In this document: positions 4,522 to 55,976 of the stretch, piece by piece
How the letters are laid out: the number at the start of each line of letters is the position of its first letter
Position numbering within the stretch: position 1 is the first letter of the stretch
Source of the DNA: Patescibacteria group bacterium
Lineage (GTDB): Bacteria > Patescibacteriota > Minisyncoccia > Phycocordibacterales > UBA9973
DNA: 64,000 nucleotides
Reading direction: 5' to 3'
Assembly (NCBI GenBank): GCA_040388575.1
Contig: JAZKBO010000001.1
Coordinates: forward strand, 6,549 to 70,548
The notes under the pieces: model-generated
What the model saw: the letters and a program-made list of their open reading frames with translations, nothing else
The model's database searches: none
What the model was told of the DNA's origin: nothing
Made by a program: the position numbers and the translations under genes

Positions 4522-5343
4522 TTAACTGTTTTTGATTTTATAAAAATTCCACCCAGTATAAATCAAGGCCAACGACATAACAAAATATGAAACAAAATAT
4601 AAGTAGTCATCAATACCTCCGGTATACCATGTGCCATGGCCAACTTGATAAAGAAAAACAAAATCAGCTAAATAATCCATTACAAGTGCAAAAAGTAAAA
4701 AAAGTATCGGTTTTTTCATAATACCACCTAACATATTTCTAGAAATTAAAAATGCCAATATTGCTATTGATATATATAATGCTTGCCCAAGAGGGTACCC
4801 AAAATCTAGTAAGATTTTTAATTTGTTTGACCAATCAAATTCATACCCTTGCAAAAACAGGAAATAAGATATAAATAAAATTGCAACAGGTATTATAGCC
4901 GCCCAAATTTTGTTCTTAACTAATTTTAAAGAAAACTTACCACCTCCTATTTTAGAAAGTAAAAATGAAGAATAAATGTAGGCTAAAACACTACCGAAAA
5001 ATCCAATATCTCCAATGGAAGGGTATGGTATTTCAACTTTTTGAAAGATATTCCAGTAGCTATTAAAAAGTTGCCCAAATGTCTGAAGAAAAAGACCAAC
5101 AGACATAATTAGCATTGCTTTGCCTACCAGGCTTTTATAGCCACCCCAATTTCTGGAAACTTTCATCCCAGCAATACCTCCGAATAATGCCATTACAGTG
5201 TAAATCCCACCAAAAATTTGTCTTTGTTTAAGAGAAGAATCTACATCAAGACTATAAACATAGAAAAAGAATATCGAAATACCAACAAACAATATAATTG
5301 CAATCAGGAGTTCACGCTTATTATTTTTATTAGTTTCTAGCAT
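4522..5343 (-). CDS. Polytopic membrane protein, hypothetical
   Basis: 273 aa with about 8 hydrophobic helices. Directly upstream, on the same strand, of the small ORF and the kinase. Confidence 0.6.
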   Translation of the reverse strand: MLETNKNNKRELLIAIILFVGISIFFFYVYSLDVDSSLKQRQIFGGIYTVMALFGGIAGMKVSRNWGGYKSLVGKAMLIMSVGLFLQTFGQLFNSYWNIFQKVEIPYPSIGDIGFFGSVLAYIYSSFLLSKIGGGKFSLKLVKNKIWAAIIPVAILFISYFLFLQGYEFDWSNKLKILLDFGYPLGQALYISIAILAFLISRNMLGGIMKKPILFLLFALVMDYLADFVFLYQVGHGTWYTGGIDDYLYFVSYFVMSLALIYTGWNFYKIKNS

Positions 5344-5422
5344 GTATTTAATTATACCACCCTTCCTTTATTACTGTGCAAGTTGTTTATCAACATGGAT
5401 AACTTTCATTAAGGAAGATTTT

Positions 5423-6367
5423 CTAGGGAGTAGGTGGGGCAAATGTTCCCTCGGCCAACTTATAAGAGATTATATATTTTTTAAAAAAAGAGTGGTGTCT
5501 AAATTGAGTTTTTGCATTCCTTAAATTCTCTATACCAAGATCCTGTTCGTCGTTCATAAATTCTTTACCGAATGAGAAAATAATTTCAGCGTTTTTCTTT
5601 CGTAAGAAAGCATAAATTCCCGGGAGAGCTACCTCTGCTTTAGCGATCATGCCAAGACAATAATTTGAATTATTTAGTTCGTTGATAAAAAAAGCAACTA
5701 ATTTATTATCTATAAAAATTCCCACACTAATCAATTCTGCAACTTCATTAATAATAAATAATCTTTTAATAACCTCAAGTTCTTTGTGTTCAAAAGTGAA
5801 AAATAATTTTTCTATGATCTTATTTGTAATCCATTTTTTGTAAAGTTTAATAACATCAGATTGTGTTTTTTTGTCCCCTAAATGTAAAAGTCTAATTTCT
5901 GCTTTGGGATATTCTTTAATAAAGAACTCAGTTTGTGTAAGTTTCTTTTTTAATTTACTGCCATGTAATTTAGCTAGGGTTTCAGTATGATAAATGTAAT
6001 CAAAATGATCGCGATCTTCCACGATATTGTATTTTTTTGTATCTAAACCTAAAACTGAATCTTCAGGAACTAGCTTTAGTAGCATGTCTAATTTTTCATC
6101 TTTTGATAGAGAGAATAGTTTTTCCACAGTGGAATTAGTATTTTTATTTCCAAGGAAAGAATAGAAAGGTTTTCCAGTTATATAGTCTGCAAAGCGTACA
6201 ACTAAATTACCGTAGAGCTGCGAAATTCGCATTTCACCTTTTATATCCCAACTCCACATGGAGACAAAATTAAAATCAGAATAAGGGGGAAATTTTAGAG
6301 TAAATTTCTCTATATCCTTTTTATCAGTTAATTCAAGTTTTTTAAATTCAGGAAATTCAGGAATCAT
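5423..6367 (-). CDS. Hypothetical protein, possibly a DUF2156/FemAB-like (GNAT-fold) acyltransferase
   Basis: 314-aa ORF with a low-GC, lysine-rich composition typical of this genome. Similarity to the MprF C-terminal-like domain is a weak impression only. Confidence 0.3.
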   Translation of the reverse strand: MIPEFPEFKKLELTDKKDIEKFTLKFPPYSDFNFVSMWSWDIKGEMRISQLYGNLVVRFADYITGKPFYSFLGNKNTNSTVEKLFSLSKDEKLDMLLKLVPEDSVLGLDTKKYNIVEDRDHFDYIYHTETLAKLHGSKLKKKLTQTEFFIKEYPKAEIRLLHLGDKKTQSDVIKLYKKWITNKIIEKLFFTFEHKELEVIKRLFIINEVAELISVGIFIDNKLVAFFINELNNSNYCLGMIAKAEVALPGIYAFLRKKNAEIIFSFGKEFMNDEQDLGIENLRNAKTQFRHHSFFKKYIISYKLAEGTFAPPTP

Positions 6368-6454: not shown

Positions 6455-6482
6455 TTGCAAAAAATCTAAAATGATGTATAAT
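6455..6482 (+). promoter_or_regulatory. Sigma-70-like promoter (TTGCAA, 16-nt spacer, TGnTATAAT) at the AT-rich edge of high-GC island 1
   Basis: Motifs read directly: ttgcaa at 6455-6460, tgtataat at 6475-6482. Confidence 0.4.
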
Positions 6483-6537
6483 GATAATAAGGCAGCCCTT
6501 GTTTTTTGACACTTAAATAGGGCTAGGAGTTGACACT

Positions 6538-6975
6538 ATGGGTCGCGAGGATACGGTACGAACCCTACTGAACTCAATCCCGATTTTCACAAGTCGCGAC
6601 TGGGGCTCCGTGGAGAGAAATGGTAGGGCGGTAGAGCTGGCCAAATCCATTCGGGCAGCCGTCGATCAACGGGACGACGCCAAGATGAAAGAGTTGGCTA
6701 AGGAAATCGACTACTTCATGTCGCCAAGCTTTGTTCTCTTCAAGAGGATGGAGCGTCTCATCGAGAGACAGGGACAGAGGGTTTGGCGCGCCGAACAAGA
6801 CAACGCCGCTTGGCAGAGTCTGATCAGACGCACGTCGATCGTTACACGACGTCGTGATACTGCGGAGCTCGCAGAAATTGCGCCGCGCATCATTGCGTTT
6901 CTCAAGCAGAGGAACGAGCATGTCCTGGCTGGAAGCCTCGAAGAGGCCCTGGCTACATGCAAGGCTCGAAGATAG
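6538..6975 (+). CDS. Hypothetical protein, first gene of high-GC island 1
   Basis: 145-aa ORF. Coding-like composition at about 58% GC against an AT-rich backbone. Arg-rich, no recognised domain. Confidence 0.5.
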   Translation: MGREDTVRTLLNSIPIFTSRDWGSVERNGRAVELAKSIRAAVDQRDDAKMKELAKEIDYFMSPSFVLFKRMERLIERQGQRVWRAEQDNAAWQSLIRRTSIVTRRRDTAELAEIAPRIIAFLKQRNEHVLAGSLEEALATCKARR

Positions 6976-7001
6976 TTCACCCCTAGTAAGGACTAAAAGA
7001 G

Positions 7002-7490
7002 ATGTCGAAGCTGTATTTTACTCGCTCCGGCGCAGATAGAATAATGCGTCAGAAGCAGGCTTTATTTGACAAACTTAGGTCAATTCAAGGCCAGAAAGGA
7101 GAAGCCGCAGAGGTTGGAGGCAACCAGTGGCATGATAATTTCTCCTTCGAGCAACTGTCGCGTGACGAACAGATGGTTAACGCACAAATCACTGAAATCA
7201 ATCGAAAGATTGCCGACATGGTTGTGATTGACCAGCCGCCAGACGACACGAGCAAGCTTCGCATTGGACACATTGCGTTGCTTGATGTTAATGGAGAAAT
7301 CAAAACATATTTGGTGGGGGGCTTTGAAGACTCGGAGAGCTCCACTAAACCGCAGGTCATCAGCTATCTGGCTCCGCTCATCCGCCAATTCATCGGAAAA
7401 GAGCGGGGCTACACGACTTCAATCAAAATCGATGAGAAGACGGTTGAAGTCACGCTCGAGGAGATACAACTACAGAAGGAGGGGAAGTAG
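7002..7490 (+). CDS. GreA/GreB-family transcript-cleavage-factor homologue
   Basis: N-terminal coiled coil and C-terminal FKBP-like domain align with GreA ('NAQITEINRKIADMVVID', 'LRIGHIALLDVNGEIKTYLVGG...ISYLAPLIRQFIGKERGYTTSIKI'). Confidence 0.7.
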   Translation: MSKLYFTRSGADRIMRQKQALFDKLRSIQGQKGEAAEVGGNQWHDNFSFEQLSRDEQMVNAQITEINRKIADMVVIDQPPDDTSKLRIGHIALLDVNGEIKTYLVGGFEDSESSTKPQVISYLAPLIRQFIGKERGYTTSIKIDEKTVEVTLEEIQLQKEGK

Positions 7491-7492
7491 TC

Positions 7493-8047
7493 ATGATCGT
7501 AGCAGTAGAAGGGATTGACTGCGCCGGGAAAGGTGAAGCTTGCCCTAGACTGGCCAGAGCTCTTAATGCAATCTTGTTCAAGACTCCCCCTGAAAGCATG
7601 AGAGGGGAGCAGGATAAGGTCAACGCTACTGCCACGGATGAGGAGCATTATAGTTACTTTACTCGAGTCGTGCAAACGGCATCGAGGGAGTTAGCTGTTC
7701 TGGCTACGAACCGCAACGTGGTAGTAGATCGATATTGGATGACCACAGTGGTTTACCACCGGGTCATGGGAATTCCAGCCAAACTGGCGGATATGGGCAA
7801 CATTATCATTCCGGATATAACCGTCTACCTAACGGTGTCTCCGCAAGTCCAAGCAAAACGAATGGATGGTAGGGGCATGTCTCCGGGCGACAAGCGCATG
7901 GACGGCAGGCAACACCTCATTCGACAAATCTACGACGAAGTCCTGTCCACGGTGGACAAGGTGATTCGCGTAGATACCAGCAATCTTACCCCGGATCAGG
8001 TCATCGACCTGATTCTCGCGGGAATGCCCTCTGTCGACAGCGGCTGA
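7493..8047 (+). CDS. Thymidylate-kinase-like (dNMP kinase fold) protein with an atypical P-loop
   Basis: 'IVAVEGIDCAGKGEA' resembles the TMPK 'IEGxDGAGKST' motif but lacks the Ser/Thr. 'DRYWMTTVVYH' and 'PDITVYLTVSPQVQAKRMDGRG' match TMPK DRx and lid regions. Confidence 0.65.
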   Translation: MIVAVEGIDCAGKGEACPRLARALNAILFKTPPESMRGEQDKVNATATDEEHYSYFTRVVQTASRELAVLATNRNVVVDRYWMTTVVYHRVMGIPAKLADMGNIIIPDITVYLTVSPQVQAKRMDGRGMSPGDKRMDGRQHLIRQIYDEVLSTVDKVIRVDTSNLTPDQVIDLILAGMPSVDSG

Positions 8048-8114
8048 GGGCATTTACTTTTGCACTTACAATAATGTTATAATGGTTTTAATTATTTAAA
8101 TACAATAAATATCT

Positions 8115-8672
8115 ATGAATAACCGAGAGATAGAGGTAAGATTTTTAGAAATTGATAAACAACTTTTAATTAAAAAATTAAGCGATCTTGGGGCGCAAGA
8201 TCATGGAGAAGATTTATTGGAGGAAATTATTTTTTATGACAAGGATCATAAATGGCCAGACGAGGGTAAATTTGTAAGAATAAGAAAGGATAGTAAGGGT
8301 GTATTACTGTCCTACAAGCACCATCAGTCTGAAAATATTAATGGGGTAGAAGAAATTGAATTTGGTATTACAGACAGTGAACAAGCAAAAGTTTTTTTAG
8401 AAAAATTAGGACTAATAGTTTTTAGATACCAACAAAAAAAACGGCATTCGTTCACGTTAAACGGAGTAACTGTGGACATTGATACGTGGCCCAAAATCCC
8501 AACATATCTAGAGCTTGAGGGATCTTCTGAATTAGAACTAAAAGAAGCAGCGGGAAAGCTTCAATTGGATTGGCAGGAGGTAGTTTTTAAAAGCGCGAGA
8601 ACTATTATTGAAGAACAATACCATATACCAGTTAGCTCGATGAAGTGGTTTACTTTTGATAAATTTGAATAA
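8115..8672 (+). CDS. CYTH-domain protein (triphosphate tunnel metalloenzyme; class IV adenylyl cyclase / triphosphatase family)
   Basis: N-terminal 'EIEVRF' (ExExK) motif and C-terminal 'YLELEGSSELE' acidic motif, with matching size. Confidence 0.8.
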   Translation: MNNREIEVRFLEIDKQLLIKKLSDLGAQDHGEDLLEEIIFYDKDHKWPDEGKFVRIRKDSKGVLLSYKHHQSENINGVEEIEFGITDSEQAKVFLEKLGLIVFRYQQKKRHSFTLNGVTVDIDTWPKIPTYLELEGSSELELKEAAGKLQLDWQEVVFKSARTIIEEQYHIPVSSMKWFTFDKFE

Positions 8673-8679
8673 ATAAAAT

Positions 8680-10008
8680 ATGTTTAAATCAGGAAAAGAG
8701 TCTGGAGACTATCTAAGACAAATTGGAAACAGCGTCCCAGAAAAAATTGGCGTTATTGAAAAATCTTTAAATGACAGTAGTTTACCAAAAACTGCAGACG
8801 GAAAAATTAGAATTATTGAACTTGGTATTGGTGGGGGTGAGTCACTTAAGAGACTTAAAAAAAATTCATCTAGTGGTGTAGAATTGATTGCGGTAGATAT
8901 TATTCCAAAGCTAGTAGCTTCGATAAAAAAAGAAACTGGGGTTGATGCGGTAGCTGCAGATGCAGGCACATTGCCTTTTGCCGATATGTCAATTAGCGCC
9001 ATTAATGCATCTGCTATTTTTCATGAAATTAGTTCATACGGCATTGGTAGTAATTTAAAAGATGGGGGTAATTTATATGGAAAGGATGCCATAATCAGAA
9101 CACTTGGAGAATTTAATAGAGTATTACTACCTGAAGGAAAAATTGCTTATAGGGATGTTCTGGCGCCGTCAGAAAATTTAATGGGTGGAAAAAAAGTTAA
9201 CTACTCTCATAAATCGTGGAGGTTATATGCAAATTGGTTTTTAAGAGATTTTGTGAATCCGAGCTCTCGCTTTTACAAAAACATCAACCCAACTATAGAT
9301 GAGGCAGAGGATGGATTCGCTTTAACTGCTCCAGTAGGATTTCAGAGAGATTTTCAACGGCACTATATAATGCTCAGAGACTACCTAAGAAATGTAAAAC
9401 AAAAAGAGTTTGGTTTGACTATGGTCCGTTCGGATTGGTTAGATGAAAAACAAGGACTAAAATCCGTAACATTTTCTTTAGATGAGCGTTTGGGGTCTAT
9501 AATTGATTTGTCAGGTTTTGAAGTACATGATTCCATGGGGGAAAAAATTTATCGTGGTAATTCTGATCAATTTGATAAAATTTATGACGACCTAATGGAA
9601 TATTATTTCACTCAATTAAATAGTGGTTCTGTTGAAGGGAAGATTTTTGCTGAAATCATAAATACATGGAAAGAAAGAGAGGGTTTAGAGAACTATATAT
9701 ATGGAAACATTATTGACATATTGGATTTATCTTATGAGGCAACTAAAAGTAGTAATAGTGAGTGGGTACTTTTTCCTGAATCTACTTCAGATATAGAAAC
9801 CCCATTAAGATTTTATTACAATCGTTATTTAAAGGGTGTTGTAGACTACCCGGAACAGGACGGAAAGCAAATAATATCTTTTAAAAAAATGAAAAGAGAT
9901 CAAGCATTGGATTCACTTAATAAGCTTATGGAATCTCCTTGGTGTATTAAAAATTTAGGTGTTAAAGAAATGGAAAAACTGAGAGTTAAGATAGAACAAT
10001 TAAAATAG
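8680..10008 (+). CDS. Class I SAM-dependent methyltransferase with a ~240-aa C-terminal extension of unknown function
   Basis: Motif I 'IIELGIGGGESL', motif II 'LIAVDII', motif IV-like 'LPFADMSISAINASAIFHEI'. Confidence 0.65.
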   Translation: MFKSGKESGDYLRQIGNSVPEKIGVIEKSLNDSSLPKTADGKIRIIELGIGGGESLKRLKKNSSSGVELIAVDIIPKLVASIKKETGVDAVAADAGTLPFADMSISAINASAIFHEISSYGIGSNLKDGGNLYGKDAIIRTLGEFNRVLLPEGKIAYRDVLAPSENLMGGKKVNYSHKSWRLYANWFLRDFVNPSSRFYKNINPTIDEAEDGFALTAPVGFQRDFQRHYIMLRDYLRNVKQKEFGLTMVRSDWLDEKQGLKSVTFSLDERLGSIIDLSGFEVHDSMGEKIYRGNSDQFDKIYDDLMEYYFTQLNSGSVEGKIFAEIINTWKEREGLENYIYGNIIDILDLSYEATKSSNSEWVLFPESTSDIETPLRFYYNRYLKGVVDYPEQDGKQIISFKKMKRDQALDSLNKLMESPWCIKNLGVKEMEKLRVKIEQLK

Positions 10009-10031
10009 CTACTAAATTTAAATATATAAGA

Positions 10032-10433
10032 ATGAAAAAAACATTAAAAGCTGGGGCTATTATTTTAAGTAGCACAGATAAGAATAAAGTAGCTATCTTG
10101 TATAGCAGTAGGCAAAATGATTACTCTTTTCCAAAAGGACATGTAGAATCTGGCGAAAATGTAATGCAGGCAATGTTAAGGGAGGTAAAGGAAGAAACGG
10201 GATTAGATATAAAAATAATTCAAACTTTACCTGATATTAACTATGCCACCCCGAGTGGAGAAGCTGTTTTAATAAAAATGTTTTTAGTTAAGTCAGAGAA
10301 TGATTCCAAACTCAAACCGGAATTTGATAAAGATAAAATTGAGTGGGTACTTATTGAAGCAGTTACAGAAAAGCTCAGCTATAATAACTTAAAGGAATAT
10401 TTTAACTCGGTAAAACACTTTTTAAATAAATAG
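10032..10433 (+). CDS. NUDIX hydrolase
   Basis: Canonical Nudix box 'GHVESGENVMQAMLREVKEETGL'. Confidence 0.85.
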   Translation: MKKTLKAGAIILSSTDKNKVAILYSSRQNDYSFPKGHVESGENVMQAMLREVKEETGLDIKIIQTLPDINYATPSGEAVLIKMFLVKSENDSKLKPEFDKDKIEWVLIEAVTEKLSYNNLKEYFNSVKHFLNK

Positions 10434-14343: not shown

Positions 14344-14373
14344 ACTAACAGCATAGTGAGAAAGAGCAAGGGT

Positions 14374-14402
14374 TGACTTTTGGACTATAATATGCTATAC
14401 TA
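14374..14402 (+). promoter_or_regulatory. Sigma-70-like promoter (TTGACT, 17-nt spacer, TATACT) at the AT-rich edge of high-GC island 2
   Basis: Read directly in the divergent intergenic region between the lipase gene and the island. Confidence 0.35.
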
Positions 14403-14458
14403 TATAGGATATCGGGTGGGATTTGCTCACTCGAAGTTCCTTGAGAAAGGGGACAGTC

Positions 14459-14890
14459 ATGCAGAAGAGCTTTCAGTTCGTCCTTGGAATTCTGGCCATC
14501 GCGATCATCATCCTGGCTTTCGCCGCTCCGGCGAAAGCGCAGACGCCGGCGCAGAAGGAGTCCGCGCAGGAGAAGCTCGCGGATGTCGCGATGCCTAACG
14601 AGATGCTGATCAAGGCGCCGACCATGTGCGCCGGCGAGGCGGGCATCCTGATCAAAGAGGTCCGGAACTTCTGCCTCGAGCTCGCACAGATGGAGAAGCA
14701 GCGTTCCATCGCAGCGGCGAAGGCGGCGTCTAAGGCAATCGCGCCGGACAGCACATCCTTCGGCAAGGCACTCCTTACCGGCGTCGCCATCAACGCCCTC
14801 GCACCGCGTGGCTACTACGAGAGCTACAACAGCTACGGGTACGGCGGCTATACTCCCTACATTAGCCCCAACCCCTACTTCCGGCGGTAA
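14459..14890 (+). CDS. Small secreted Ala-rich protein with a Tyr/Gly-rich C-terminus (high-GC island 2)
   Basis: Good SD (GAAAGGGGA) precedes the ATG at 14459. Signal peptide 'FVLGILAIAIIILAFAAPAKA'. The annotated ORF 14423.. is a longer alternative. Confidence 0.5.
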   Translation: MQKSFQFVLGILAIAIIILAFAAPAKAQTPAQKESAQEKLADVAMPNEMLIKAPTMCAGEAGILIKEVRNFCLELAQMEKQRSIAAAKAASKAIAPDSTSFGKALLTGVAINALAPRGYYESYNSYGYGGYTPYISPNPYFRR

Positions 14891-15099
14891 CTTCACCGGC
14901 AACTATCAACGGCGTCGTTTGCAGATCCTTTGGATCCTGCAGGCGGCGCTGTTTCGTTTTTAAGTGCAATTTTTTTATATTAGATTGAAAAACCTAGGTA
15001 TTTTGTAATAATTTATCCATATAAAGCGTCTCGTAAATGGAATATTTAAGCTTGTTGACTGACCCCATATATGTGGTAAAGTCAATTTAGGACGGCTTT

Positions 15100-15447
15100 T
15101 TGACAGCAGAATCCGGGCTGCTTACATATAGTAAGCCCGAGAAAGGAATAAAAGTGACAGGAAGGGCGGGGCTTGAACGACTTGGTGAAAAGCTCGCCCG
15201 CGAGATGGAAAGGATGTTTGACTGCCATCTGGGCGCAAACATACAAATCCTCTCTACCGTGGGAGAGCCCGAAGTAGGACGAGAAAAAATTTACGGGCGG
15301 CTGACCTTTACAATGGTTGACCGCTCACAAAAAAAAATAGAGGAGTGGACCATCGAAGGGGCTGCAAAAAGCTACCTCGATGTCGAGCCCGGGCTGAGGC
15401 CTGTGCTGGTGAATATTGTGTATAGAAGGGAGCAAGTAAATGAGTAA
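15100..15447 (+). CDS. Hypothetical protein, translationally coupled to the FtsZ-like gene
   Basis: 115-aa ORF whose stop overlaps the downstream ATG (ATGAGTAA). Confidence 0.5.
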   Translation: MTAESGLLTYSKPEKGIKVTGRAGLERLGEKLAREMERMFDCHLGANIQILSTVGEPEVGREKIYGRLTFTMVDRSQKKIEEWTIEGAAKSYLDVEPGLRPVLVNIVYRREQVNE

Positions 15448-17011
15448 CGCGGATACACGACCCGACAACGACACCCAAAATACTCAGGTAAACGTCCTCG
15501 TGGCGTCGCCTGGGCAGTTTGGCCTCAACAACGTGCCGATGTGGATGGAGGCAACACCACCGGAAATGGCACCAGGAATAAGTTTCTTGGTGTACGACGC
15601 CGACGGCCCCCTCGGGGGGGATCGATTCAAGCAAGGACATGACGGTCCGAGCCAAGCTATCCAAAAGTGGACTGGCGACAAGACTCGTTTCTCGAGGATC
15701 CAGATCACAGAGGTCATCGACCCCAATGCATCGCCGGCGAGTGAAGCCGGAGACGACTCGCAACCGAAACTCCCGCGAAAGTTTTTCGGGGCGGGCGGTG
15801 ACCCCGCGGTGGGCAAGAGGCTCATCGAGGGACACACCGACAAAATCCAGAACGCGATCCGCGGGAAAGACTTCGTGTTCAATTGGGGAGCGGGCGGCGG
15901 CGGCATCGGAACACCAGGCATGAGGAAGACTGCGGAATGTGCTACCGAAGTCGGCGTGCCCTACCTCTCCGTCCTTCACACTCCCTTCAACGTGGGGCAG
16001 CAAATTGGGATTGCTGAGCGGCTGCGGCTTGATCTGCGCAAGAAGGGGCGGCCCCTTCTCGTCTACAAAAACGCAAATCTTCCCGAGGCCAAACGCAAGA
16101 TGCCACCCAAACAGGTCCTGCGAACTATCAACGAGGCCTGCAGCCCGCTCTTTCGAACCTTCCACATGGCGACCCAGAGAGTCGGCAGTGCGTGGAATTT
16201 CGACCTCAACGATTTCATCACTGCGATGAAGTTCGGTCCCGACGGCTATCACGGCGCATACGACGCGCCGACGAAAGCGAGCGAGACTGAAGGCGAACGA
16301 AGGTTCGACGTGGCTGAATTGCCACAAGTCGTGACCGCTTTGATGTCTGATATCTTTCAGGATCACGACATCGTCGCGAAGGCGCTACTCTTCTGCTTCT
16401 GTGGTCCATGGACCATGGAAGAGATCGACATCATCGAGGCGGGGGTCCGTGAGAAGACTGGGTTCCCAACGCGGGGATTCATCAAGAGGCAAACAAACGA
16501 GGAAGAGACCGAGATGTGGGTTTCTGTCCTGGCATTCGGCACCTTCGCCAGTGAACTCAAGAAAAAAGAGGCACCGAAAGTTCCTGCACCAAGCGGAGTG
16601 CCGCGCCTTCTTTCGGAAAACAAGCCGACTGACGTAGAGTCACCAGCGCCGGTGAAAGAACCGGCAAACGACATACCTTCAATTGCGGCCCAAGCTGCAG
16701 TGAAGTCCGAACCCGCACTTACTCCCGGGTCGCCACAAGGCCCCCAGATGACAATCGCTTTCATCACTGAAAACGGAAGGCAAGTATCACATCAAGTGGA
16801 GACGGAATTGGGCCTCCGTTTCAAGAAGTTGTACCGGCACGGAACGAACCCGGAACTTCGAGAAGCTGTGTGTGAAGAAGTGAAAGTGGCAACAGGAGGC
16901 GATCGTCCCCCGAAATGGGGCGAAATGCCCCGATCCGAAACCCGCCCCTCGCGACTTCAGCAAATGAGGGAACGGCTCACTCGTCGATTCCAAGTTTCAA
17001 CAGGCAATTAG
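15440..17011 (+). CDS. Divergent FtsZ/tubulin-superfamily GTPase with a ~190-aa Pro/Ala-rich C-terminal tail
   Basis: Core aligns with FtsZ: 'FGAGGDPAVGKRL' ~ 'GLGAGANPEVGRN'; 'FVFNWGAGGGGIGTPGMRKTAECATEVGVPYLSVLHTPFN' ~ '[38 protein letters not shown]'; 'NFDLNDFITAMKFGPDGYHG' ~ 'NVDFADVRTVMSEMGYAMMG'. The N-terminal G-box is degenerate. Confidence 0.8.
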   Translation: MSNADTRPDNDTQNTQVNVLVASPGQFGLNNVPMWMEATPPEMAPGISFLVYDADGPLGGDRFKQGHDGPSQAIQKWTGDKTRFSRIQITEVIDPNASPASEAGDDSQPKLPRKFFGAGGDPAVGKRLIEGHTDKIQNAIRGKDFVFNWGAGGGGIGTPGMRKTAECATEVGVPYLSVLHTPFNVGQQIGIAERLRLDLRKKGRPLLVYKNANLPEAKRKMPPKQVLRTINEACSPLFRTFHMATQRVGSAWNFDLNDFITAMKFGPDGYHGAYDAPTKASETEGERRFDVAELPQVVTALMSDIFQDHDIVAKALLFCFCGPWTMEEIDIIEAGVREKTGFPTRGFIKRQTNEEETEMWVSVLAFGTFASELKKKEAPKVPAPSGVPRLLSENKPTDVESPAPVKEPANDIPSIAAQAAVKSEPALTPGSPQGPQMTIAFITENGRQVSHQVETELGLRFKKLYRHGTNPELREAVCEEVKVATGGDRPPKWGEMPRSETRPSRLQQMRERLTRRFQVSTGN

Positions 17012-17024
17012 AAAGGAGAAGTGC

Positions 17025-17798
17025 GTGAAGAAGATTTTCGCATGGCTCCTGCTCCTCTTCTTGTTCCTCCCGGGAACAGCAAGGGCGCAGACAGCCGAGA
17101 AGACACTTCACCTCGAAAGAGGAAGGTGGCTTTGGACACTCCTGATAAACGAAGGGTGTACCAAGGCGGAGACCGCCAAACTCTGGCCGAAAGTGGCCAC
17201 AGATAACGGTCTACCGCTCAATAAGGAGAAGGTTTGGCAACCCCAAACCCTCATCCTCAAGCGTGACTGTCGGGGGGAGTCCCTCGAAGTCATCGCGCTT
17301 CGGAAACAAGTCGCGGAGTTCCCAGGAAAGTTGCAGGAGCTCCAAGATAAGGCGGACAAGAGGCTCGCGGATGAGCTCGCCAAGAAGGACGCCGAAATCG
17401 CACAGCTTCGGAGAAGTGGCATTGTTCTTGGATTGCTAGGTCTGGCGGCTGGTGTAGGGATTGGATGGATTATTCGGGGGCGTCGTGTTCCCGAAATTAA
17501 ATCGGCGTCGCCACTTGTGGAAACGCTGGATCCGAAGATCGTGGCTGTACCGCGAGAAATCACGGTGGAGCACTGGGGTAAGGATTGGGGCTTTGTTCTA
17601 ACCCAACCTCAATATAAGTGCCCAGTCTGCGGGGAAGTTGTGGGCGACGAAGTCGAAGCCCGCGAACACCTGGAAGCTGAGCACAAAGAGGAGGGTCACA
17701 TTTCGTTCAAGACGACCGACCCTCTCCGTCCCGATTCCGAGTTTCCCGACGAAATGGTTGGCTCGCAGACGCGGCACTTTCCGCGAGGCGAGAAGTAG
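17025..17798 (+). CDS. Signal-peptide, coiled-coil, single-TM protein with a C-terminal C2H2-type zinc-finger-like motif
   Basis: Signal peptide 'LLLLFLFLPGTARA'. TM 'IVLGLLGLAAGVGIGWII'. 'YKCPVCGEVVGDEVEAREHLEAEH' fits C-x2-C...H-x4-H. Confidence 0.55.
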   Translation: MKKIFAWLLLLFLFLPGTARAQTAEKTLHLERGRWLWTLLINEGCTKAETAKLWPKVATDNGLPLNKEKVWQPQTLILKRDCRGESLEVIALRKQVAEFPGKLQELQDKADKRLADELAKKDAEIAQLRRSGIVLGLLGLAAGVGIGWIIRGRRVPEIKSASPLVETLDPKIVAVPREITVEHWGKDWGFVLTQPQYKCPVCGEVVGDEVEAREHLEAEHKEEGHISFKTTDPLRPDSEFPDEMVGSQTRHFPRGEK

Positions 17799-18426: not shown

Positions 18427-21400
18427 ATGACCGAAGAAAAAAAGAATTTATTAAAAGAAAAAGGGGCACTTCTGCAAAAGCAGGCTGAAATAAATGCCGA
18501 GTTAGAAAGGCGCGAAATGGCCAGAAATGTAGAGGTTGCCTCTGACGCCGTAAGTAAGGGAGATTATAAAAAACAAGTACAGGCAATGGAGGATGCTTGG
18601 GATACTCCTGATAATTTGCGCCCTGAAATTGAACAACAAAAACTAATGGGTGAAATAGAAGTCTTAGAAGCTGAACTAGAAGGAATAAAATCAAAAATTG
18701 AAGAAAATAAAAATACTGGTAAAACCAGGATAGATCAAATTCTTGCAAGAAAAAAGAAGAGAATAAAAGACGAATTAACCGAAAAAAGAAAAAAGCTTAA
18801 TCTGCTAGGGAAAGCGACCCCAATTAAAAAAGGTTCAGTAAGCGCGAGAGGATATGTAGCATTGTCTAAGAGGCAAGGTAAAAAGTGGCAAAAATTTGCG
18901 GATCAAAGACTTCAAAAAGATGCAGATAGTGCTTTTACAGAAATTGATAAAAAAACTGCTGCAGAAGAAATTAAAAAAACATTGCGAGGCACAGACATTA
19001 GGCTACGTAAAGCTGAGGCAGCCCCAGTTAACATGAGTACGGAAACAGCCGAAGAAACGAGTGGAAATACACCTGAACCTTTATTGACGGAAGAGGAATT
19101 ATTAAATAAGAAAAAGGAGGAAATTCTATCGATACCAAAAATAAAGAAGTTTATTGAAGACCAATCTGGACTCCTAAACTCTTCAAATCACCAAGATAGG
19201 ATGGCGGCAGAAAGAAAATTAAAAGAGATAATGGCTGACCCACTGGCAGCAATTAGGGGGGATTATGACTATTTTGAGGAGGAATTAGCTAAAAACCCTA
19301 ACTCAAAAATACTCAAAAATCGTTTGGGAGAAGCCCGTAAATTGATCGATCAGATCGATGTAATAAATAATAAATATGAACGCCAGGAAGACGAAAGTGA
19401 CTTTGCAAAAACTTTTAAGAACACTTTATTACAAAAAATAGATAACATTCCAGAGGGATCGCCAATTACTGAATCGGTACAGCCTACTGAAAAAGAAAAA
19501 AAAGATTTACTGGAAATTGATAAGGAGATAGCATCATTACCAGCAAAGAAAAAGATGGAACTCGGAAAAGGAATACTCTCTTTTGGTTTTCGAGTTGAGA
19601 AATGGAAAAATTCATTCTGGGCAAATCGTTTCAATAATTTAGAGAAAAAATTTGATGATAGGAGTGATCAAGGTGACACTGTGTATCGTGGAGGAGAAAA
19701 ATTCAATGAAACAGGCGGCACCATGTATCGCTGGACTAAGGCACTTCAAAATAATTTTGAAAAACAGAAAGAAAAAGCGCAAAAACAAATAGATGAAATT
19801 TATGCGGATAAGGCTGGCTTGAAGACTAAAGCCATGAGCCAAGCTAAACTAGCTGGAAATATTTTAAAATATGGCCGGACTTTGTATGATGTGGGGAAGT
19901 GGACAACAGGTGCGCCTTGGAGGTTTATTATGGCCGGCGGTATGGCTATCAGTGCCGGATCCAAAGCAGGCGTTGAGGCAAGATTTGAAAATAAAGATTT
20001 AATAGAACAAACTAGGGTTCAAGACCAGGCGGTTGCCTATGAAGAAGCTTGGGCTCTACACGGCAGCTTTGAAATAAATAAGTCGAAAGAAGAGCTGGAG
20101 GCTGCCTACTTAGCAGCCCTACCTAAGGAGATTAAAAAAAGATTGGAAAATCCAGAAGCAGCCGTAAATTGGGTTCAAGGGGCGTATAAAGTAAGAATAG
20201 GGTATGCACTTGGAAATTTGGATAAAAAAATAAAAAAAATAGAGGGTAATTCGAAATTAAATGATGAGACCAAAAAGGAAAGAGTTGCGACATTACTAAA
20301 AAGTTATGGGGAAGTTTTGCGGGACTTTGATCGAATGCTTACTCAAGCTGGTACTATCGACCAGTGGGTATTGGCAGGTAAAGCCGGACAAGTAGCAGGT
20401 AAAGCTGTAATGGCAAGCTCTATTATACGTTTAGTCTACGATAAAGTAGAACATTTATTTTCACACGGGGTAGCTTCAACTGTGGAGGCTCATCATCCGG
20501 GCGCACTCGGTAACCATGAAGCTAGAATAAGTGGAGTAGGTCATACCGTAGATACACAACCTTCGGCGGCTGATGCAGCGGGAGGAGCCCCGCATGCCGA
20601 AGTGAGTGGAGCCATGAAAAGCGTAGAAATAAAATTTGATCACGGTAAGGGTGGCATCCAAGGAATTGTGGACCTCAAGCACCAGATTGTAGAAAAATAT
20701 GGAAGTATAGAAAAATCTCCGGCAGAGCTTCAGGAATTCTTGAAAGGCAGTTCCACTAAACAAGCAATGGAATTTGGGCTTTTTGATCCTAACCACGCCA
20801 ACGAGAGCGCACTTATCCATGAAGGCTCAACTTTGAAATTTGAAAATGGCCATTTAGTATTTCATGATGCAAAAACTGGTATAGATGTCACTAAATATGA
20901 AACAAAAATGGGAATGCTTGATTCCGACCACAGTGGTCAAGCTCCTGCGGTGGAGCATGCGGAAGCAAATCCCGTAGAGCACCCTGAAGCAGGCAGGTTT
21001 GAACACGCGACTAAAGGAATTAGATTTGATGCGGAGCATATTAAGGCCGGCATAGAATCCAAAATGGATGCGGCCACGCAGAGTATGCCCGGACACAGCG
21101 CAGCGGAGTCAGCTATGAATGCCAAGGAGTCAGCGCTGCGGGAAGTGATGGAGAATAGTGGTTATTCCAGTGTTTCCAAAGGAGTAGCAATTAATGAATA
21201 TAATTTATCTAAACTTTTCCCCAATAATTCATTGAATATGTGGGAAGCAGCTTCCAAGCAACTGCGCGCAATTGATATACTAAAAAACCCTACAATCGGA
21301 GTAAGTGAATTTAATAAACATACTCTTTATGGAAATATTTTCCATTACTTACAAAAAGTGCAAGAAGTGACTGGCCTTAAACCGAAGGGTGCAAGCATAT

Positions 21401-21501
21401 TCCACTGGAAGAGTGAAAGTGTGGCAAGTTATGCAGAAAGATGTCTAAAATTCATCGAAGAAAAGCATCCAGAAAGGCTTAAAGATCTAATTTTAAAATA
21501 A
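18427..21501 (+). CDS. Large hypothetical protein (1024 aa), coiled-coil/charged N-half and His-rich C-half
   Basis: Long uninterrupted ORF in host-like composition. No recognised catalytic motif. Confidence 0.6.
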   Translation: MTEEKKNLLKEKGALLQKQAEINAELERREMARNVEVASDAVSKGDYKKQVQAMEDAWDTPDNLRPEIEQQKLMGEIEVLEAELEGIKSKIEENKNTGKTRIDQILARKKKRIKDELTEKRKKLNLLGKATPIKKGSVSARGYVALSKRQGKKWQKFADQRLQKDADSAFTEIDKKTAAEEIKKTLRGTDIRLRKAEAAPVNMSTETAEETSGNTPEPLLTEEELLNKKKEEILSIPKIKKFIEDQSGLLNSSNHQDRMAAERKLKEIMADPLAAIRGDYDYFEEELAKNPNSKILKNRLGEARKLIDQIDVINNKYERQEDESDFAKTFKNTLLQKIDNIPEGSPITESVQPTEKEKKDLLEIDKEIASLPAKKKMELGKGILSFGFRVEKWKNSFWANRFNNLEKKFDDRSDQGDTVYRGGEKFNETGGTMYRWTKALQNNFEKQKEKAQKQIDEIYADKAGLKTKAMSQAKLAGNILKYGRTLYDVGKWTTGAPWRFIMAGGMAISAGSKAGVEARFENKDLIEQTRVQDQAVAYEEAWALHGSFEINKSKEELEAAYLAALPKEIKKRLENPEAAVNWVQGAYKVRIGYALGNLDKKIKKIEGNSKLNDETKKERVATLLKSYGEVLRDFDRMLTQAGTIDQWVLAGKAGQVAGKAVMASSIIRLVYDKVEHLFSHGVASTVEAHHPGALGNHEARISGVGHTVDTQPSAADAAGGAPHAEVSGAMKSVEIKFDHGKGGIQGIVDLKHQIVEKYGSIEKSPAELQEFLKGSSTKQAMEFGLFDPNHANESALIHEGSTLKFENGHLVFHDAKTGIDVTKYETKMGMLDSDHSGQAPAVEHAEANPVEHPEAGRFEHATKGIRFDAEHIKAGIESKMDAATQSMPGHSAAESAMNAKESALREVMENSGYSSVSKGVAINEYNLSKLFPNNSLNMWEAASKQLRAIDILKNPTIGVSEFNKHTLYGNIFHYLQKVQEVTGLKPKGASIFHWKSESVASYAERCLKFIEEKHPERLKDLILK

Positions 21502-21513
21502 TTGCGATAAAAG

Positions 21514-23559
21514 TTGTGCTATATTGGACAGGTGAGTACAGATATTCCGCATTTATTGGGTCTAAATAAAGAACAGAGGGAGGCGGCACTTCATATGAAG
21601 GGGCCGATTTTGATAGTGGCTGGCGCTGGGGCGGGTAAAACAAAGACTATCACTCATAGAATAGTGAATTTGATCAAGGAAGGCGTGGCGCCAGAGCAAA
21701 TCTTGGCAGTAACCTTTACTAATAAGGCTGCTAAAGAAATGCGGGAGCGGATAATACAAGCACTGGAAGATAACTTCGCCGGTGATCCTTTTACTCAGGT
21801 CCTCGGATCTCCGGGTCCCTATCCCGGCCAGACCGTTCCTAAAAGCATCACCGGCTTCGTAAAAAGCCAACCTTTTGTCAGCACTTTTCACTCTCTGGGG
21901 GTGCATATAATCAAGGAAAATGCAGGGTTATTGGGCTTAACCAAGTATTTTACGATTTTGGACGAGTCGGATTCAATTTCCATAATAAAAGAGGCTCAAA
22001 AGGAGCTCGGCATAGATCCGAAACAGTATGAACCCAAGAAAATAAAGGGTATTATCAGCCGGGAAAAGGGTAAATTCACCAATTTGGCGGATTATAGTGA
22101 GCGAGCAGGCGATTACATGGGTAAAATTGTGGCTCAGGTGTGGAATTTATATGAAAAGAAAAAAGCGCAAGAAAACAGCCTCGACTTTGATGATTTAATA
22201 TTAAAATCTACTAAATTACTGAAAGATGATGTAGAGGTGCGACAAATGTATCAGGATAGGTGGCAATATATCCACATAGATGAGTATCAGGATACAAATG
22301 AGGTGCAATATTTGATGTCCCGGCTCTTGTCAGAAAAATACAAAAACATCTGCGTGGTGGGGGATGCAGATCAAAATATTTATTCCTGGCGCGGGGCAAA
22401 TTTGAAAAATATTTTAAGCTTTGAGAAGGATTATCCGAATGCCAAGATTGTACTATTGGAGGAAAATTACCGCTCCACTCAAAACATATTGGAGGCGGCT
22501 AATGAAGTAATCAAAAAAAATAAGTATCGCCCTGATAAAAATTTATTTACTAAAAATTTAGTGGGAGATAAAATTTCCATCTATGAAGCATTGGATGAAA
22601 CTGATGAAGCCGAATTCGTAGCAACAAAACTTTTGGAAATTGCCGACGTAGTCGAGAAAAAAGGCTTCGCTTTGAGTGAAATTGCAGTTTTGTATCGTGC
22701 GAATTTTCAATCACGCGCGCTGGAAGAAGCGATGCTGCGATACAATATTCCATATCAGGTGCTGGGTGTTAAATTTTTCGAAAGAAAAGAAATTAAAGAC
22801 ACGTTGGCATATCTGCGCGCAGCATTAAATCCGGAGAGCTTGTCCGACATAAAAAGAATAATAAACTTTCCAACTAGGGGAATTGGTAAGACCACTATTG
22901 CTAAGATTTTTTCTAACGATATGGAAAGTCTACCGATAAAAATGAGGCTGAAAATTAATAATTTCTATAATTTATTAACTGAAATAAAAGAAAAAATTGA
23001 GGTACTACCTGCGAGCCAAGTGATAAAATTTGTAGTTAAACGCTCCGGAATTGAGGATGAATTAAGTGCTGGGGACGAGGAAGAAAAGGAAAGATTGGAG
23101 AACATAAAAGAGCTTGCAACCTTGGCACTCAAATATGAAAATTTGCCAAATAGTGCTGGAATTGAAAGGCTTTTAGAGGATGCGGCCCTAGCCTCTGACC
23201 AGGATTCCTTGATCGAGCGCGGTGAAAAAAAGGAAGTAAAAGATGCGGTTAAACTAATGACGGTGCATGCATCTAAGGGGCTAGAATTTAAAAATGTTTT
23301 TATCACTGGCCTGGAAGATGGGCTCTTCCCGCATTCGAAGAACGGTGAAATAAAAAATGCTGAAGACAGCGAGGAGGAGCGCAGATTATTCTATGTAGCG
23401 CTCACTCGAGCAAAAGAAAAATTATATTTATCCTTTGCAAACTTCCGCACAATATTCGGCTCACGCTCGATTAACGCGCCGTCAGAATTTCTAGGCGACA
23501 TCCCTGCAGACTTACTAGAAAAAGAAGGCGAACAGAAAATTAAAACCATCTACATCTAG
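21514..23559 (+). CDS. uvrD: UvrD/PcrA-family ATP-dependent DNA helicase
   Basis: Motif I 'AGAGAGKTKTITHRI', 'VTFTNKAAKEMRERI', motif II 'IHIDEYQDTN', 'VGDADQNIYSWRGA'. Carries the in-frame ~60-bp element (copy 1). Confidence 0.9.
   Translation: MCYIGQVSTDIPHLLGLNKEQREAALHMKGPILIVAGAGAGKTKTITHRIVNLIKEGVAPEQILAVTFTNKAAKEMRERIIQALEDNFAGDPFTQVLGSPGPYPGQTVPKSITGFVKSQPFVSTFHSLGVHIIKENAGLLGLTKYFTILDESDSISIIKEAQKELGIDPKQYEPKKIKGIISREKGKFTNLADYSERAGDYMGKIVAQVWNLYEKKKAQENSLDFDDLILKSTKLLKDDVEVRQMYQDRWQYIHIDEYQDTNEVQYLMSRLLSEKYKNICVVGDADQNIYSWRGANLKNILSFEKDYPNAKIVLLEENYRSTQNILEAANEVIKKNKYRPDKNLFTKNLVGDKISIYEALDETDEAEFVATKLLEIADVVEKKGFALSEIAVLYRANFQSRALEEAMLRYNIPYQVLGVKFFERKEIKDTLAYLRAALNPESLSDIKRIINFPTRGIGKTTIAKIFSNDMESLPIKMRLKINNFYNLLTEIKEKIEVLPASQVIKFVVKRSGIEDELSAGDEEEKERLENIKELATLALKYENLPNSAGIERLLEDAALASDQDSLIERGEKKEVKDAVKLMTVHASKGLEFKNVFITGLEDGLFPHSKNGEIKNAEDSEEERRLFYVALTRAKEKLYLSFANFRTIFGSRSINAPSEFLGDIPADLLEKEGEQKIKTIYI
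21788..21846 (+). mobile_element. Copy 1 of a ~60-bp GC-rich repeat with inverted ends, inserted in frame in uvrD (encodes '...TQVLGSPGPYPGQTVPKS...')
   Basis: Core 'CAGGTCCTCGGATCTCCGGGTCCC...GGCCAGACCGTTC' shared with copies at 53230, 61323 and 63574. Ends cttttacTCAGG / CCGTTCctaaaag are inverted. Confidence 0.7.
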
Positions 23560-23564
23560 AATAT

Positions 23565-24338: not shown

Positions 24339-24423
24339 GGTGGTTTCAGAGCTTGCATGCTCAAAAAAGTGATATAATAAAAGGATAATCAAGTTAAATT
24401 GGTTAAAAAATAAAAGGGCGCTT

Positions 24424-25320: not shown

Positions 25321-25345
25321 AAAGGCTTATAGATAAAGGATAAAA

Positions 25346-29368: not shown

Positions 29369-29369
29369 A

Positions 29370-31703: not shown

Positions 31704-31714
31704 AAAATAAAAAT

Positions 31715-32749: not shown

Positions 32750-32750
32750 T

Positions 32751-33224: not shown

Positions 33225-33238
33225 TATATAATAAAATT

Positions 33239-33889: not shown

Positions 33890-33897
33890 ATAAATTT

Positions 33898-55903: not shown

Positions 55904-55976
55904 GCGCCCGTAGCTCAGTCGGTAGAGCAGATCCCTTTTAAGGATAAGGTCGTTGGTTCGATCCCAACCGGGCGCA
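55904..55976 (+). tRNA. tRNA-Lys (anticodon TTT)
   Basis: Hand-folded cloverleaf. Acceptor GCGCCCG/CGGGCGC, D-arm GCTC-AGTCGGTA-GAGC, anticodon loop CTTTTAA, T-arm GTTGG-TTCGATC-CCAAC, discriminator A. No encoded CCA. Confidence 0.9.

Follow-up and report, generated by a model that had tools for sequence, protein, structure and literature searches.

The factors that act in the secondary channel of bacterial RNA polymerase (RNAP), which are GreA/GreB, DksA, Gfh1, Rnk, and TraR, form a small and well-studied set. They bear two functionally important acidic residues at their tips, which are also kept in Gfh1 and Rv3788, Gre-fold inhibitors of RNAP catalysis, and which in Rv3788 are critical for inhibition (PMC4598747). 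DksA works together with ppGpp, while Rnk, a member of the Gre family whose annotation is that of a regulator of nucleoside diphosphate kinase, binds to RNAP in competition with the Gre factors and DksA (PMC4598747). Here, we describe a locus in which a gene for a Gre-like protein is directly followed by a gene for a thymidylate kinase (TMPK)-like nucleotide kinase. The locus is located in a 64-kb stretch (the window) of contig JAZKBO010000001.1, a 130-kb contig from a metagenome-assembled genome of a Patescibacteria bacterium of the candidate phyla radiation (CPR). An earlier note on this DNA had described the pair, together with a preceding gene for an Arg-rich protein, as a GC-rich island of foreign composition which may be a regulatory or nucleotide-sensing module. 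The comparison of related loci indicates that the pair belongs to a larger module of five to six genes, which also includes the Arg-rich protein gene, orf145, and the genes located at 8115–10433. A literature search returned no paper that deals with such a combination of genes, with the WHDNF motif found in the Gre-like protein, or with the defense candidates PDC-M51 and VakA, to which the kinase is related. Hence, the gene combination and the tip class appear to be undescribed, and we class the Gre-like protein as a Gre-fold secondary-channel-type factor with a new tip class and a new enzyme partnership. Our preferred reading, which is tentative and to which we give somewhat less than even chances, is that the island is the RNAP-facing half of a nucleotide module, in which a secondary-channel factor is coupled to the making and breaking of a nucleotide effector. 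The features on which the analysis is based are as follows (GC3 denotes the G+C content of third codon positions, and SAM S-adenosylmethionine):

6455..6482, + strand: candidate sigma-70-like promoter, TTGCAA-16 nt-TATAAT, matching 10 of 12 consensus positions; located upstream of orf145 and the best site of the region

6538..6975, + strand: orf145, encoding a small Arg-rich protein (145 aa, 14.5% Arg) of a very rare family; GC 0.555, GC3 0.63

7002..7490, + strand: gene for the Gre-like protein (162 aa), with a GreA/Gfh1 fold, coiled-coil helices at residues 8–37 and 42–71, and a beta-rich C-terminal globular domain

7092..7157, + strand: coiled-coil tip motif QKGEAAEVGGNQWHDNFSFEQL (residues 31–52), where conservation within the family is highest

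7493..8047, + strand: gene for the TMPK-like P-loop nucleotide kinase (184 aa; PF02223, 51.6 bits), with its ATG 2 nt past the stop codon of the Gre-like gene

7511..7540, + strand: Walker A variant GIDCAGKGEA, with Ser/Thr replaced by Gly, specific to clade A

8018..8063, + strand: strong hairpin over the kinase stop codon, followed by the U-rich run UUUACUUUU; dG −23.8 kcal/mol, z −4.5, equalled in stability by 0 of 200 shuffles; inverted repeat I4

8115..8672, + strand: low-GC gene for a CYTH/triphosphate-tunnel metalloenzyme (TTM; 185 aa; PF01928, 48.6 bits against a threshold of 23.2)

8680..10008, + strand: gene for a class I SAM methyltransferase (442 aa), whose C-terminal ~270 aa have no structural match

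10032..10433, + strand: gene for a NUDIX hydrolase (133 aa; PF00293, 56.5 bits), a facultative fifth enzyme located near or fused within the module in several lineages

The relation of the Gre-like protein to known secondary-channel factors was evident from profile and structure comparisons. The family profile aligned to residues 1–156 of E. coli GreA (1grj) with an E-value of 7e-13, and to Gfh1 and GreB, over the full length. The AlphaFold model of the protein, which had a confidence score (pLDDT) of 91, was most similar among PDB structures to RNAP-bound Gfh1 3aoi_X (TM score 0.74), followed by GreB (0.69) and GreA (0.67). The profile alignment and the model matches agree on the presence of both the coiled-coil and the FKBP-like domains noticed earlier. 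They make the GreA/Gfh1 fold secure, and the length of the coiled coil equals that in GreA. The C-terminal SP[LI]xxxxIG motif of Gre factors was also retained. The proposed membership in the GreA/GreB family held for the fold, but every curated Gre threshold was missed. PF01272 scored 20.9 against a threshold of 26.9, PF03449 was not detected, TIGR01462 scored 38.3 against 139, and the greA and greB equivalogs gave 14–36 bits against cut-offs of 145–234. Hence, the protein resembles GreA and GreB (PF03449 plus PF01272; 1grj and, for GreB, 2p4v) in its two-domain fold, coiled-coil length, SP[LI]...IG motif, and conservation that is highest at the tip, while it differs from them in its sub-threshold scores, a tip with a two-residue insertion, the loss of the first catalytic Asp, an invariant Trp-His, and a kinase partner.

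Conservation is highest at the tip of the coiled coil. Its core reads GGNQWHDNFSFE, while the counterpart in GreA is GDxxENAEY. Residues N41, W43, H44, D45, N46, F49, and E50 were invariant in 38 family sequences with identity down to 26%. The WHDN tip was found in all 48 non-redundant Gre-like genes of the neighborhood sample, which consisted of 13 genome loci and 37 metagenome loci. In comparison with GreA, the tip contains an insertion of two residues, E44 is replaced by the invariant D45, and D41 by G40 or the invariant N41. The question whether the acidic residues needed for transcript cleavage are kept thus has a divided answer, as one of the two canonical carboxylates is retained (D45 for E44), while the other is replaced (N41 or G40 for D41), and an invariant Trp-His is added. 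The tip differs from the acidic tip of the Gfh1 type and is also not a Gre tip in decay, but represents a distinct design under strong selection. Like Gfh1 and Rv3788, the protein has a Gre fold and would not be expected to stimulate cleavage, and Gfh1 is its best structural match; unlike in these inhibitors, one of the two acidic tip residues is replaced. Kinase, CYTH, or methyltransferase partners of Gfh1 and Rv3788 are unreported in a review of these factors (PMC4598747). The similarity to Rnk consists in the functional association of a Gre-family protein with a nucleotide kinase, but the coiled coil of the Gre-like protein is of full length (8–37 and 42–71, as in GreA), unlike that of Rnk (PMC4598747), and the partner is a TMPK-like P-loop kinase rather than Ndk. 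The analogy that we propose to DksA with ppGpp, and to TraR, is that of a coiled-coil secondary-channel factor which depends for its effect on a nucleotide effector that dedicated enzymes produce and degrade (PMC4598747). It is limited by the different fold family, by the hypothetical nature of the ligand, and by the presence of a P-loop kinase, CYTH, methyltransferase, and NUDIX proteins in place of RelA/SpoT. The globular domain of DksA is a zinc finger.

The assignment of the third protein of the island to the TMPK fold was supported by the Pfam thymidylate kinase profile, whose threshold was passed (PF02223, 51.6 bits against 27), while the score for the dTMP-kinase equivalog TIGR00041 was below the cut-off (50.7 against 83.25). 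The best PDB relatives of the kinase were Tmk proteins, which were matched with only 48.6 bits. This was exceeded by the match to the PADLOC profile PDC-M51B, which gave 82 bits for the kinase and up to 109 bits for its relatives over nearly the whole length, while the VakA profile gave 40–70 bits. The likeness to these PADLOC systems is confined to component B, as no other protein of the module matched, and the system as defined is not present. In addition, the PPK2 profile PF03976 scored 24.5 against a threshold of 22.3, on kinase residues 2–96 and model positions 33–112 only, while the full domain has ~229 positions. Hence, the kinase shares with Tmk (PF02223/TIGR00041) the P-loop nucleoside monophosphate (NMP) kinase fold, the DR[YH] motif, the Arg-containing lid, and the best solved relatives, but it falls below the dTMP-kinase cut-off and has invariant family-specific motifs, YKTPP, HYxYF, DRYW, and RGMSxGDxR, of which all but DRYW are absent from Tmk. 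The 2-nt distance between the stop codon of the Gre-like gene and the start of the kinase gene was confirmed, and it suggests that the kinase gene is probably translationally coupled to the Gre-like gene.

The P-loop sequence of the kinase, GIDCAGKGEA, was the same in an independent Logan assembly of run SRR26324622, which was 100% identical across 7,944 bp. An explanation of the variant by a sequencing or assembly artifact was rejected, since it was reproducible in this assembly and conserved across homologs. The canonical Walker A consensus GxxxxGK[ST] is not matched by the window kinase and its clade. The GKGE form was present in the window, L012–L016, L027, and most close database matches, and ~20 homologs share it; GKGS, GKGA, and GKGT also occur within the clade. 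More distant members of the family contain GK[ST][TS] (GKST and GKTT), and intermediate forms GKGT, GKGA, GKSG, and GKSE were also found. Residues G12, K13, D79, R80, R123, D133, and R135 were invariant across both Walker A types, and Y81 and R127 nearly so, while the ratio of nonsynonymous to synonymous divergence (dN/dS) of the kinase gene was low. The sole PDB match of the N-terminal 45 residues was the PPK2-family protein 3czp, whose P-loops read GIEGAGKGET in domain 1 and GNDAAGKGGA in domain 2, so that the GKGE/GKGG form of Walker A is shared with this PPK2-family protein, although the PPK2 match is limited to residues 2–96 of the kinase. The PPK2 family is part of the thymidylate kinase superfamily (PMC4748334). 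The earlier note had taken the degenerate P-loop as a sign of altered or lost kinase chemistry. The invariance of the catalytic residues and the presence of the GKGE and GKGG loops in 3czp do not support a loss of chemistry, and the clade-specific GKGE loop may instead reflect a changed phosphate donor or substrate rather than a dead enzyme.

The linkage of the two genes was conserved well beyond the window. A TMPK-like gene was located directly downstream of the Gre-like gene, with a gap from −17 to +9 nt, at 26 of the 48 loci, and at a distance of 126 nt at another one. The pairing is therefore no accident, and the earlier remark that it is not a standard arrangement was upheld. Among the closer relatives with enough downstream sequence, only L032 departs from the Gre-kinase arrangement, while in L023, L024, and L049 a non-orthologous P-loop kinase (AAA_17/dNK-like) occupies the kinase position. 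In most loci the pair is accompanied by a CYTH gene and a gene for a SAM methyltransferase of 370–513 aa, and both were present in 23/48 loci. The genes are arranged in three orders, which are Gre-kinase-CYTH-methyltransferase, CYTH-methyltransferase-Gre-kinase, and methyltransferase-CYTH-Gre-kinase. The functional link among the kinase, methyltransferase, CYTH, and NUDIX proteins is confirmed by gene fusions. In L055 (192–2384), two tandem Gre-like genes are followed by a TMPK-like–methyltransferase fusion, in L063 (693–3296), Gre-like and TMPK-like genes are followed by a NUDIX–methyltransferase–CYTH fusion, and in L032 (6968–8971), where no kinase was detected, a NUDIX–methyltransferase fusion directly follows the Gre-like gene. 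The identity matrices of the four core proteins were correlated (Pearson 0.85–0.95), which indicates that the module evolves as a unit, and all four core genes were under purifying selection. The closest relative, L013, was colinear with the window from 7011 to 9920 at 74% DNA identity. Thus, the earlier description of a regulatory or nucleotide-linked module is reasonable, but the unit is not limited to the genes of the island. Two further arrangements were observed, a gene for an APH-family phosphotransferase after the Gre-like gene in L062 (7085–7963), and a second CYTH gene downstream of the kinase in L019 (9611–10138).

Among the proteins encoded in the second half of the module, the CYTH protein scored 52.2 with TIGR00318 (cyaB), just below the cut-off of 57.95, and its nearest solved relatives were archaeal CYTH/TTM proteins. 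The model of the methyltransferase had a pLDDT of 91, and only its Rossmann core matched PDB structures (TM 0.35 or less). A functional clue was sought in this structure and was not obtained, as the generic class I core alone was matched. A coupling of a P-loop kinase to a triphosphate-tunnel enzyme has a precedent in plant TTM1 and TTM2, in which a P-loop uridine-kinase-like domain is fused to CYTH. The module differs from these proteins in that the two activities would be encoded by separate genes, and in the additional presence of the Gre-like factor, the large methyltransferase, and NUDIX.

The first gene of the island, orf145, had no match in Pfam, PHROG, and PADLOC searches, and only six homologs of its product were found among 1.84 billion representative proteins. 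Both homologs with usable context were located directly upstream of a Gre-like gene with the tip FHDNFAYEE, with an adjoining NUDIX gene, while the closest module, L013, does not contain orf145. The position of the homologs upstream of Gre-like genes indicates that orf145 is a rare partner of this Gre clade rather than a bystander, and for the same reason its interpretation as a spurious or unrelated open reading frame was rejected. In the two loci with these homologs (L065, 5001–8713, and L066, 67–3837), the orf145 homolog and the FHDN-tip Gre-like gene are located beside NUDIX and sugar-nucleotide-type enzymes, namely a DegT-type aminotransferase and a GFO/IDH/MocA oxidoreductase. The GC3 of these neighbors was far lower in L065 (0.22–0.23 versus 0.43).

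The clade is rare. It comprises 63 protein clusters, and 13 loci were found among 185,579 species-representative genomes, which is a lower bound, as the patterns used in the scan detect this clade specifically. The pair is thus rare and patchy in its distribution rather than ubiquitous. The hosts are mostly CPR bacteria, including Nomurabacteria, Saccharibacteria, Doudnabacteria, Magasanikbacteria, and Falkowbacteria, with a few occurrences in bins labeled Chloroflexi, Bdellovibrionales, and Gammaproteobacteria, while the module was not found in IMG/VR viral contigs. Genomic contexts vary between genomes, with mostly housekeeping neighbors (LigA, DnaX, NusA, GatC, and BipA). No canonical greA or tmk gene was found in the 64-kb window or in loci L001–L024.

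The compositional step on which the island was originally defined is real, even though its GC content was lower than the ~58% first stated. The measured GC was 0.509 over 6455–8050 and 0.519 over the coding block of three abutting open reading frames (6538–6975, 7002–7490, and 7493–8047), with 0.555 in the highest 200-bp segment, while the GC of the flanks was 0.31 and 0.33. Of the 1.5-kb segments of the window, only 3.8% reached a GC of 0.52. The GC3 values of orf145, the Gre-like gene, and the kinase gene were 0.57–0.63, while those of the CYTH, methyltransferase, and NUDIX genes were 0.24–0.28, and typical genes of the window had ~0.40. The same contrast was observed in other genomes. The GC3 of the Gre-kinase half was higher than that of the CYTH-methyltransferase half in 26 of 28 non-redundant loci, by 0.12 on average and by 0.41 at most (L013), with a Wilcoxon P-value of 2.5e-7 when kinship among the loci is ignored. 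The GC3 of the CYTH-methyltransferase half was correlated with that of the host flank with a rho of 0.77, and that of the Gre-kinase half with a rho of 0.49. In each of the pairs tested, synonymous divergence (dS) had reached saturation in all four genes. The possibility that the high GC3 results from a preference for codons ending in C was rejected, as both C and G were elevated at third positions. A simple recent horizontal transfer of the Gre-kinase pair was also rejected, given the matching identity matrices, the saturated dS, and the colinearity with L013 at 74% DNA identity. The recurrent GC split together with the saturated dS and the matching divergence means that recent transfer alone is no explanation. 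Hence, the compositional step described earlier was upheld, but the description as an island of foreign composition is too simple, as the same split recurs in many genomes with saturated dS. An RNA gene, ribosomal or other, was rejected as the source of the high GC, since the only Rfam match in the window was one tRNA at 55904. Insertion of a mobile element was rejected as well, as the flanking direct and inverted repeats were not meaningful and the IMG/VR viral contigs contained no relatives. Possible causes of the higher GC3 of the Gre-kinase half include selection on transcript composition, biased gene conversion, and unequal exchange of the two halves.

The genes on both sides of the island (4522–6367 and 8115–10433), which encode a membrane protein, a stand-alone LPG_synthase_C-domain protein, and the CYTH, methyltransferase, and NUDIX proteins, had GC3 of 0.24–0.28, below the usual ~0.40 of the window. 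It follows that the island is embedded in a low-GC patch and not in average backbone. Two other GC-rich regions were observed in the window. The region 14345–17798 has sharp borders, GC of 0.56–0.575, GC3 of 0.53–0.64, and no rRNA. Of the three proteins encoded there, that of 523 aa weakly matched the Tubulin/FtsZ GTPase family, below the threshold (24.9 bits versus 33), while those of 257 aa and 185 aa are without a family. The other, 59397–59870, is an isolated gene located between uvrB and uvrA (GC 0.56, GC3 0.64), with a weak MGS-like match only. These regions indicate that GC-rich genes are indeed acquired or kept by this genome. The window also encodes PNPase, UvrABD, PolA, PBP1, and type-IV-secretion-like genes. 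Huge open reading frames without Pfam match (1024, 1340, and 777 aa) lie within 18427–21501, 25346–29368, 29370–31703, and 33898–35814, beside a TraG/VirB4-like P-loop ATPase. The run of large genes from 18427 to 35814 could represent a cluster of the CPR for type-IV secretion, for a pilus, or for a process like conjugation.

The putative transcription signals are consistent with the division of the module into two units. The −35 and −10 hexamers and the 16-nt spacer of the promoter proposed earlier were confirmed, but the TGn extended −10 element is absent, as the TG directly adjoins TATAAT, and the number of promoter-like sites in the AT-rich region, 13 versus 10.7 in shuffles, showed no excess. 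The 5′-untranslated region upstream of orf145 contained no structure beyond shuffle stability (z 0.07). The hairpin over the kinase stop codon, which was missed by a scan for consensus terminators, is predicted from its stability and the following U-rich run to be probably a terminator or attenuator between the orf145-Gre-kinase unit and the CYTH-methyltransferase-NUDIX unit.

According to the reading that we prefer, orf145 and the Gre-like and kinase genes would be transcribed from the promoter-like site at 6455 and end at the hairpin at 8018–8063, while the CYTH, methyltransferase, and NUDIX genes would form a second transcription unit. The Gre-like protein would dock in the secondary channel of RNAP, where it could sense or position a nucleotide at the active center rather than act as a classical Mg-dependent cleavage factor. 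The kinase would build a nucleoside polyphosphate effector, which the methyltransferase could possibly methylate and which CYTH and NUDIX would degrade, and this nucleoside polyphosphate would be the ligand of the Gre-like factor, in an arrangement analogous to that of ppGpp with DksA. A more far-reaching version, which we regard as doubtful, is that CPR bacteria and a few other lineages contain a dedicated secondary-channel system, in which a Gre-fold factor with an Asn/Trp/His/Asp tip uses a methylated nucleoside polyphosphate made and destroyed by its own partner enzymes, either as an alarmone-like cofactor or as a capping, non-canonical initiating nucleotide, with the GC3 oddity suggesting selection on the nucleotide composition of the genes themselves.

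Several observations weigh against the reading of the island as the RNAP-facing half of a nucleotide module. RNAP binding, the ligand, and the enzyme substrates are all predictions from sequences and models, and the structure of the methyltransferase gives no clue to its substrate. The best library match of the kinase is the phage-defense candidate PDC-M51B. In addition, WHDN-tip Gre-like genes without kinase, CYTH, or methyltransferase neighbors occur in housekeeping contexts (L048, L051, and L058), where they adjoin genes such as those for Pth and DnaJ, and their products score closer to GreA, with 63–79 bits. Hence, the WHDN tip may simply be another design that supports cleavage, and the proteins bearing it may be the usual Gre factor in some lineages. 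Furthermore, in Saccharopolyspora antimicrobica (L025, RBXX01000002.1, 8001–11010), a gene for a distant methyltransferase homolog is followed by a CYTH gene and by genes for 220-aa and 115-aa proteins of no known family. This locus is located on an actinomycete integrative element (RepSA, FtsK/SpoIIIE, WhiB, and HTH_31) and contains no Gre-like gene or kinase, which indicates that the methyltransferase-CYTH half can work independently of RNAP. The 220-aa and 115-aa proteins were also considered as hidden Gre or kinase homologs, which was rejected as no similarity was found; the two give the impression, though only that, of a toxin/immunity pair. Finally, the persistent GC3 gap between the halves is not accounted for by the proposed mechanism.

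Four other readings of the locus were weighed. The two proteins could be a divergent housekeeping GreA-type factor and a thymidylate or other NMP kinase in a nucleotide-salvage operon, with the high GC resulting from horizontal replacement. Both folds are indeed housekeeping folds, one canonical acidic residue is kept, some WHDN-tip Gre-like genes are located beside Pth or DnaJ genes, and the 64-kb window does not contain canonical greA or tmk. CPR bacteria also depend on nucleotide salvage. This explanation is nevertheless quite unlikely, because the scores are far below the equivalog cut-offs (38 versus 139 for greA and 50.7 versus 83 for dTMP kinase), because the 13 loci in 185,579 species genomes, although a lower bound obtained with clade-specific patterns, are few, and because the kinase family is marked by invariant motifs that Tmk lacks, while the linkage to CYTH, methyltransferase, and NUDIX genes with fusions corresponds to no known housekeeping arrangement. 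The least probable explanation is that the Gre-like protein acts away from RNAP and serves the kinase as a subunit, either structural or regulatory, in which case its coiled coil would be an adaptor in a nucleotide-metabolizing complex. The close adjacency and likely translational coupling of the genes suggest a stoichiometric complex, and the N-terminal Gre domain was undetected by Pfam and the C-terminal one was sub-threshold, but the alignment with GreA, Gfh1, and GreB extends over the whole protein, its model is nearest to the RNAP-bound conformation of Gfh1, and the SP[LI]xxxxIG motif is kept. Its conservation peaks at the coiled-coil tip, as it does in true secondary-channel factors (PMC4598747).

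The relation of the kinase to PDC-M51B raises the question of an anti-phage or conflict system, in which the enzymes would make a toxic nucleotide analog, such as a chain terminator, or deplete nucleotides, while the Gre-like factor would protect or reprogram the host RNAP, for example by excising the analog from the RNA 3′ end. We consider it unlikely, even though the kinase family matches PDC-M51B (82–109 bits) and VakA (40–70 bits) better than Tmk, the distribution of the module over CPR and the Chloroflexi, Bdellovibrionales, and Gammaproteobacteria bins is rare and patchy, the genomic contexts are variable and the composition atypical, and the methyltransferase-CYTH genes of the actinomycete element lie beside what gives the impression of a toxin/immunity pair. 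Prokaryotic viperins, which often adjoin nucleotide kinases, also count in favor of defense. On the other hand, the Gre-like protein, orf145, CYTH, and the methyltransferase had no PADLOC match, no PDC-M51A partner was found, the neighbors are mostly housekeeping genes rather than defense islands, the IMG/VR viral contigs lack the module, and the module itself lacks an effector, for instance a nuclease or a protein that disrupts membranes. A different role of the same enzymes would be in cap-like chemistry of RNA 5′ ends that is coupled to transcription. They would either alter the 5′ triphosphate or act on a non-canonical initiating nucleotide, which they would synthesize, methylate, and later remove, with the Gre-like factor aiding its use by RNAP or tethering the enzymes to RNAP. 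A triphosphate-tunnel enzyme, a methyltransferase, a NUDIX hydrolase, and a P-loop kinase mirror capping, recapping, and decapping activities, fusions join NUDIX, methyltransferase, and CYTH, and the linkage to a secondary-channel-type factor is tight. Cet1-type RNA triphosphatases share the triphosphate-tunnel fold with CYTH, and NUDIX enzymes decap RNA. In E. coli, NpnN nucleotides, whether methylated or not, are used by RNAP for initiation, and the NUDIX enzyme RppH removes these caps (PMC7044304). However, a cap-related role is very unlikely, as the module contains no guanylyltransferase or other nucleotidyltransferase, the nearest relatives of its CYTH protein are archaeal CyaB-like/TTM proteins and not RNA triphosphatases, the methyltransferase core is as near to small-molecule methyltransferases as to Bud23-type m7G enzymes, and it is the 3′ end of the RNA and the incoming nucleoside triphosphates that the secondary channel faces, rather than the 5′ end of the elongating RNA.

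If the reading of the island as the RNAP-facing half of a nucleotide module is true, a further family would be added to the secondary-channel factors, with a new wiring of nucleotide metabolism to the catalytic center of RNAP. Three features make it unusual, which are the invariant non-canonical tip, the tightly linked kinase partner, and the genetic tie to CYTH, methyltransferase, and NUDIX genes. The long-lived GC3 contrast within one co-evolving module is a separate puzzle of base composition, while the PPK2-type Walker A in a TMPK-like fold raises the question of a changed phosphate donor. The CPR hosts have minimal genomes and are dependent on scavenged nucleotides. The module also suggests a role for CyaB-like CYTH proteins, and it might point to the enzymes by which methylated nucleotide polyphosphates or caps are produced in bacteria.

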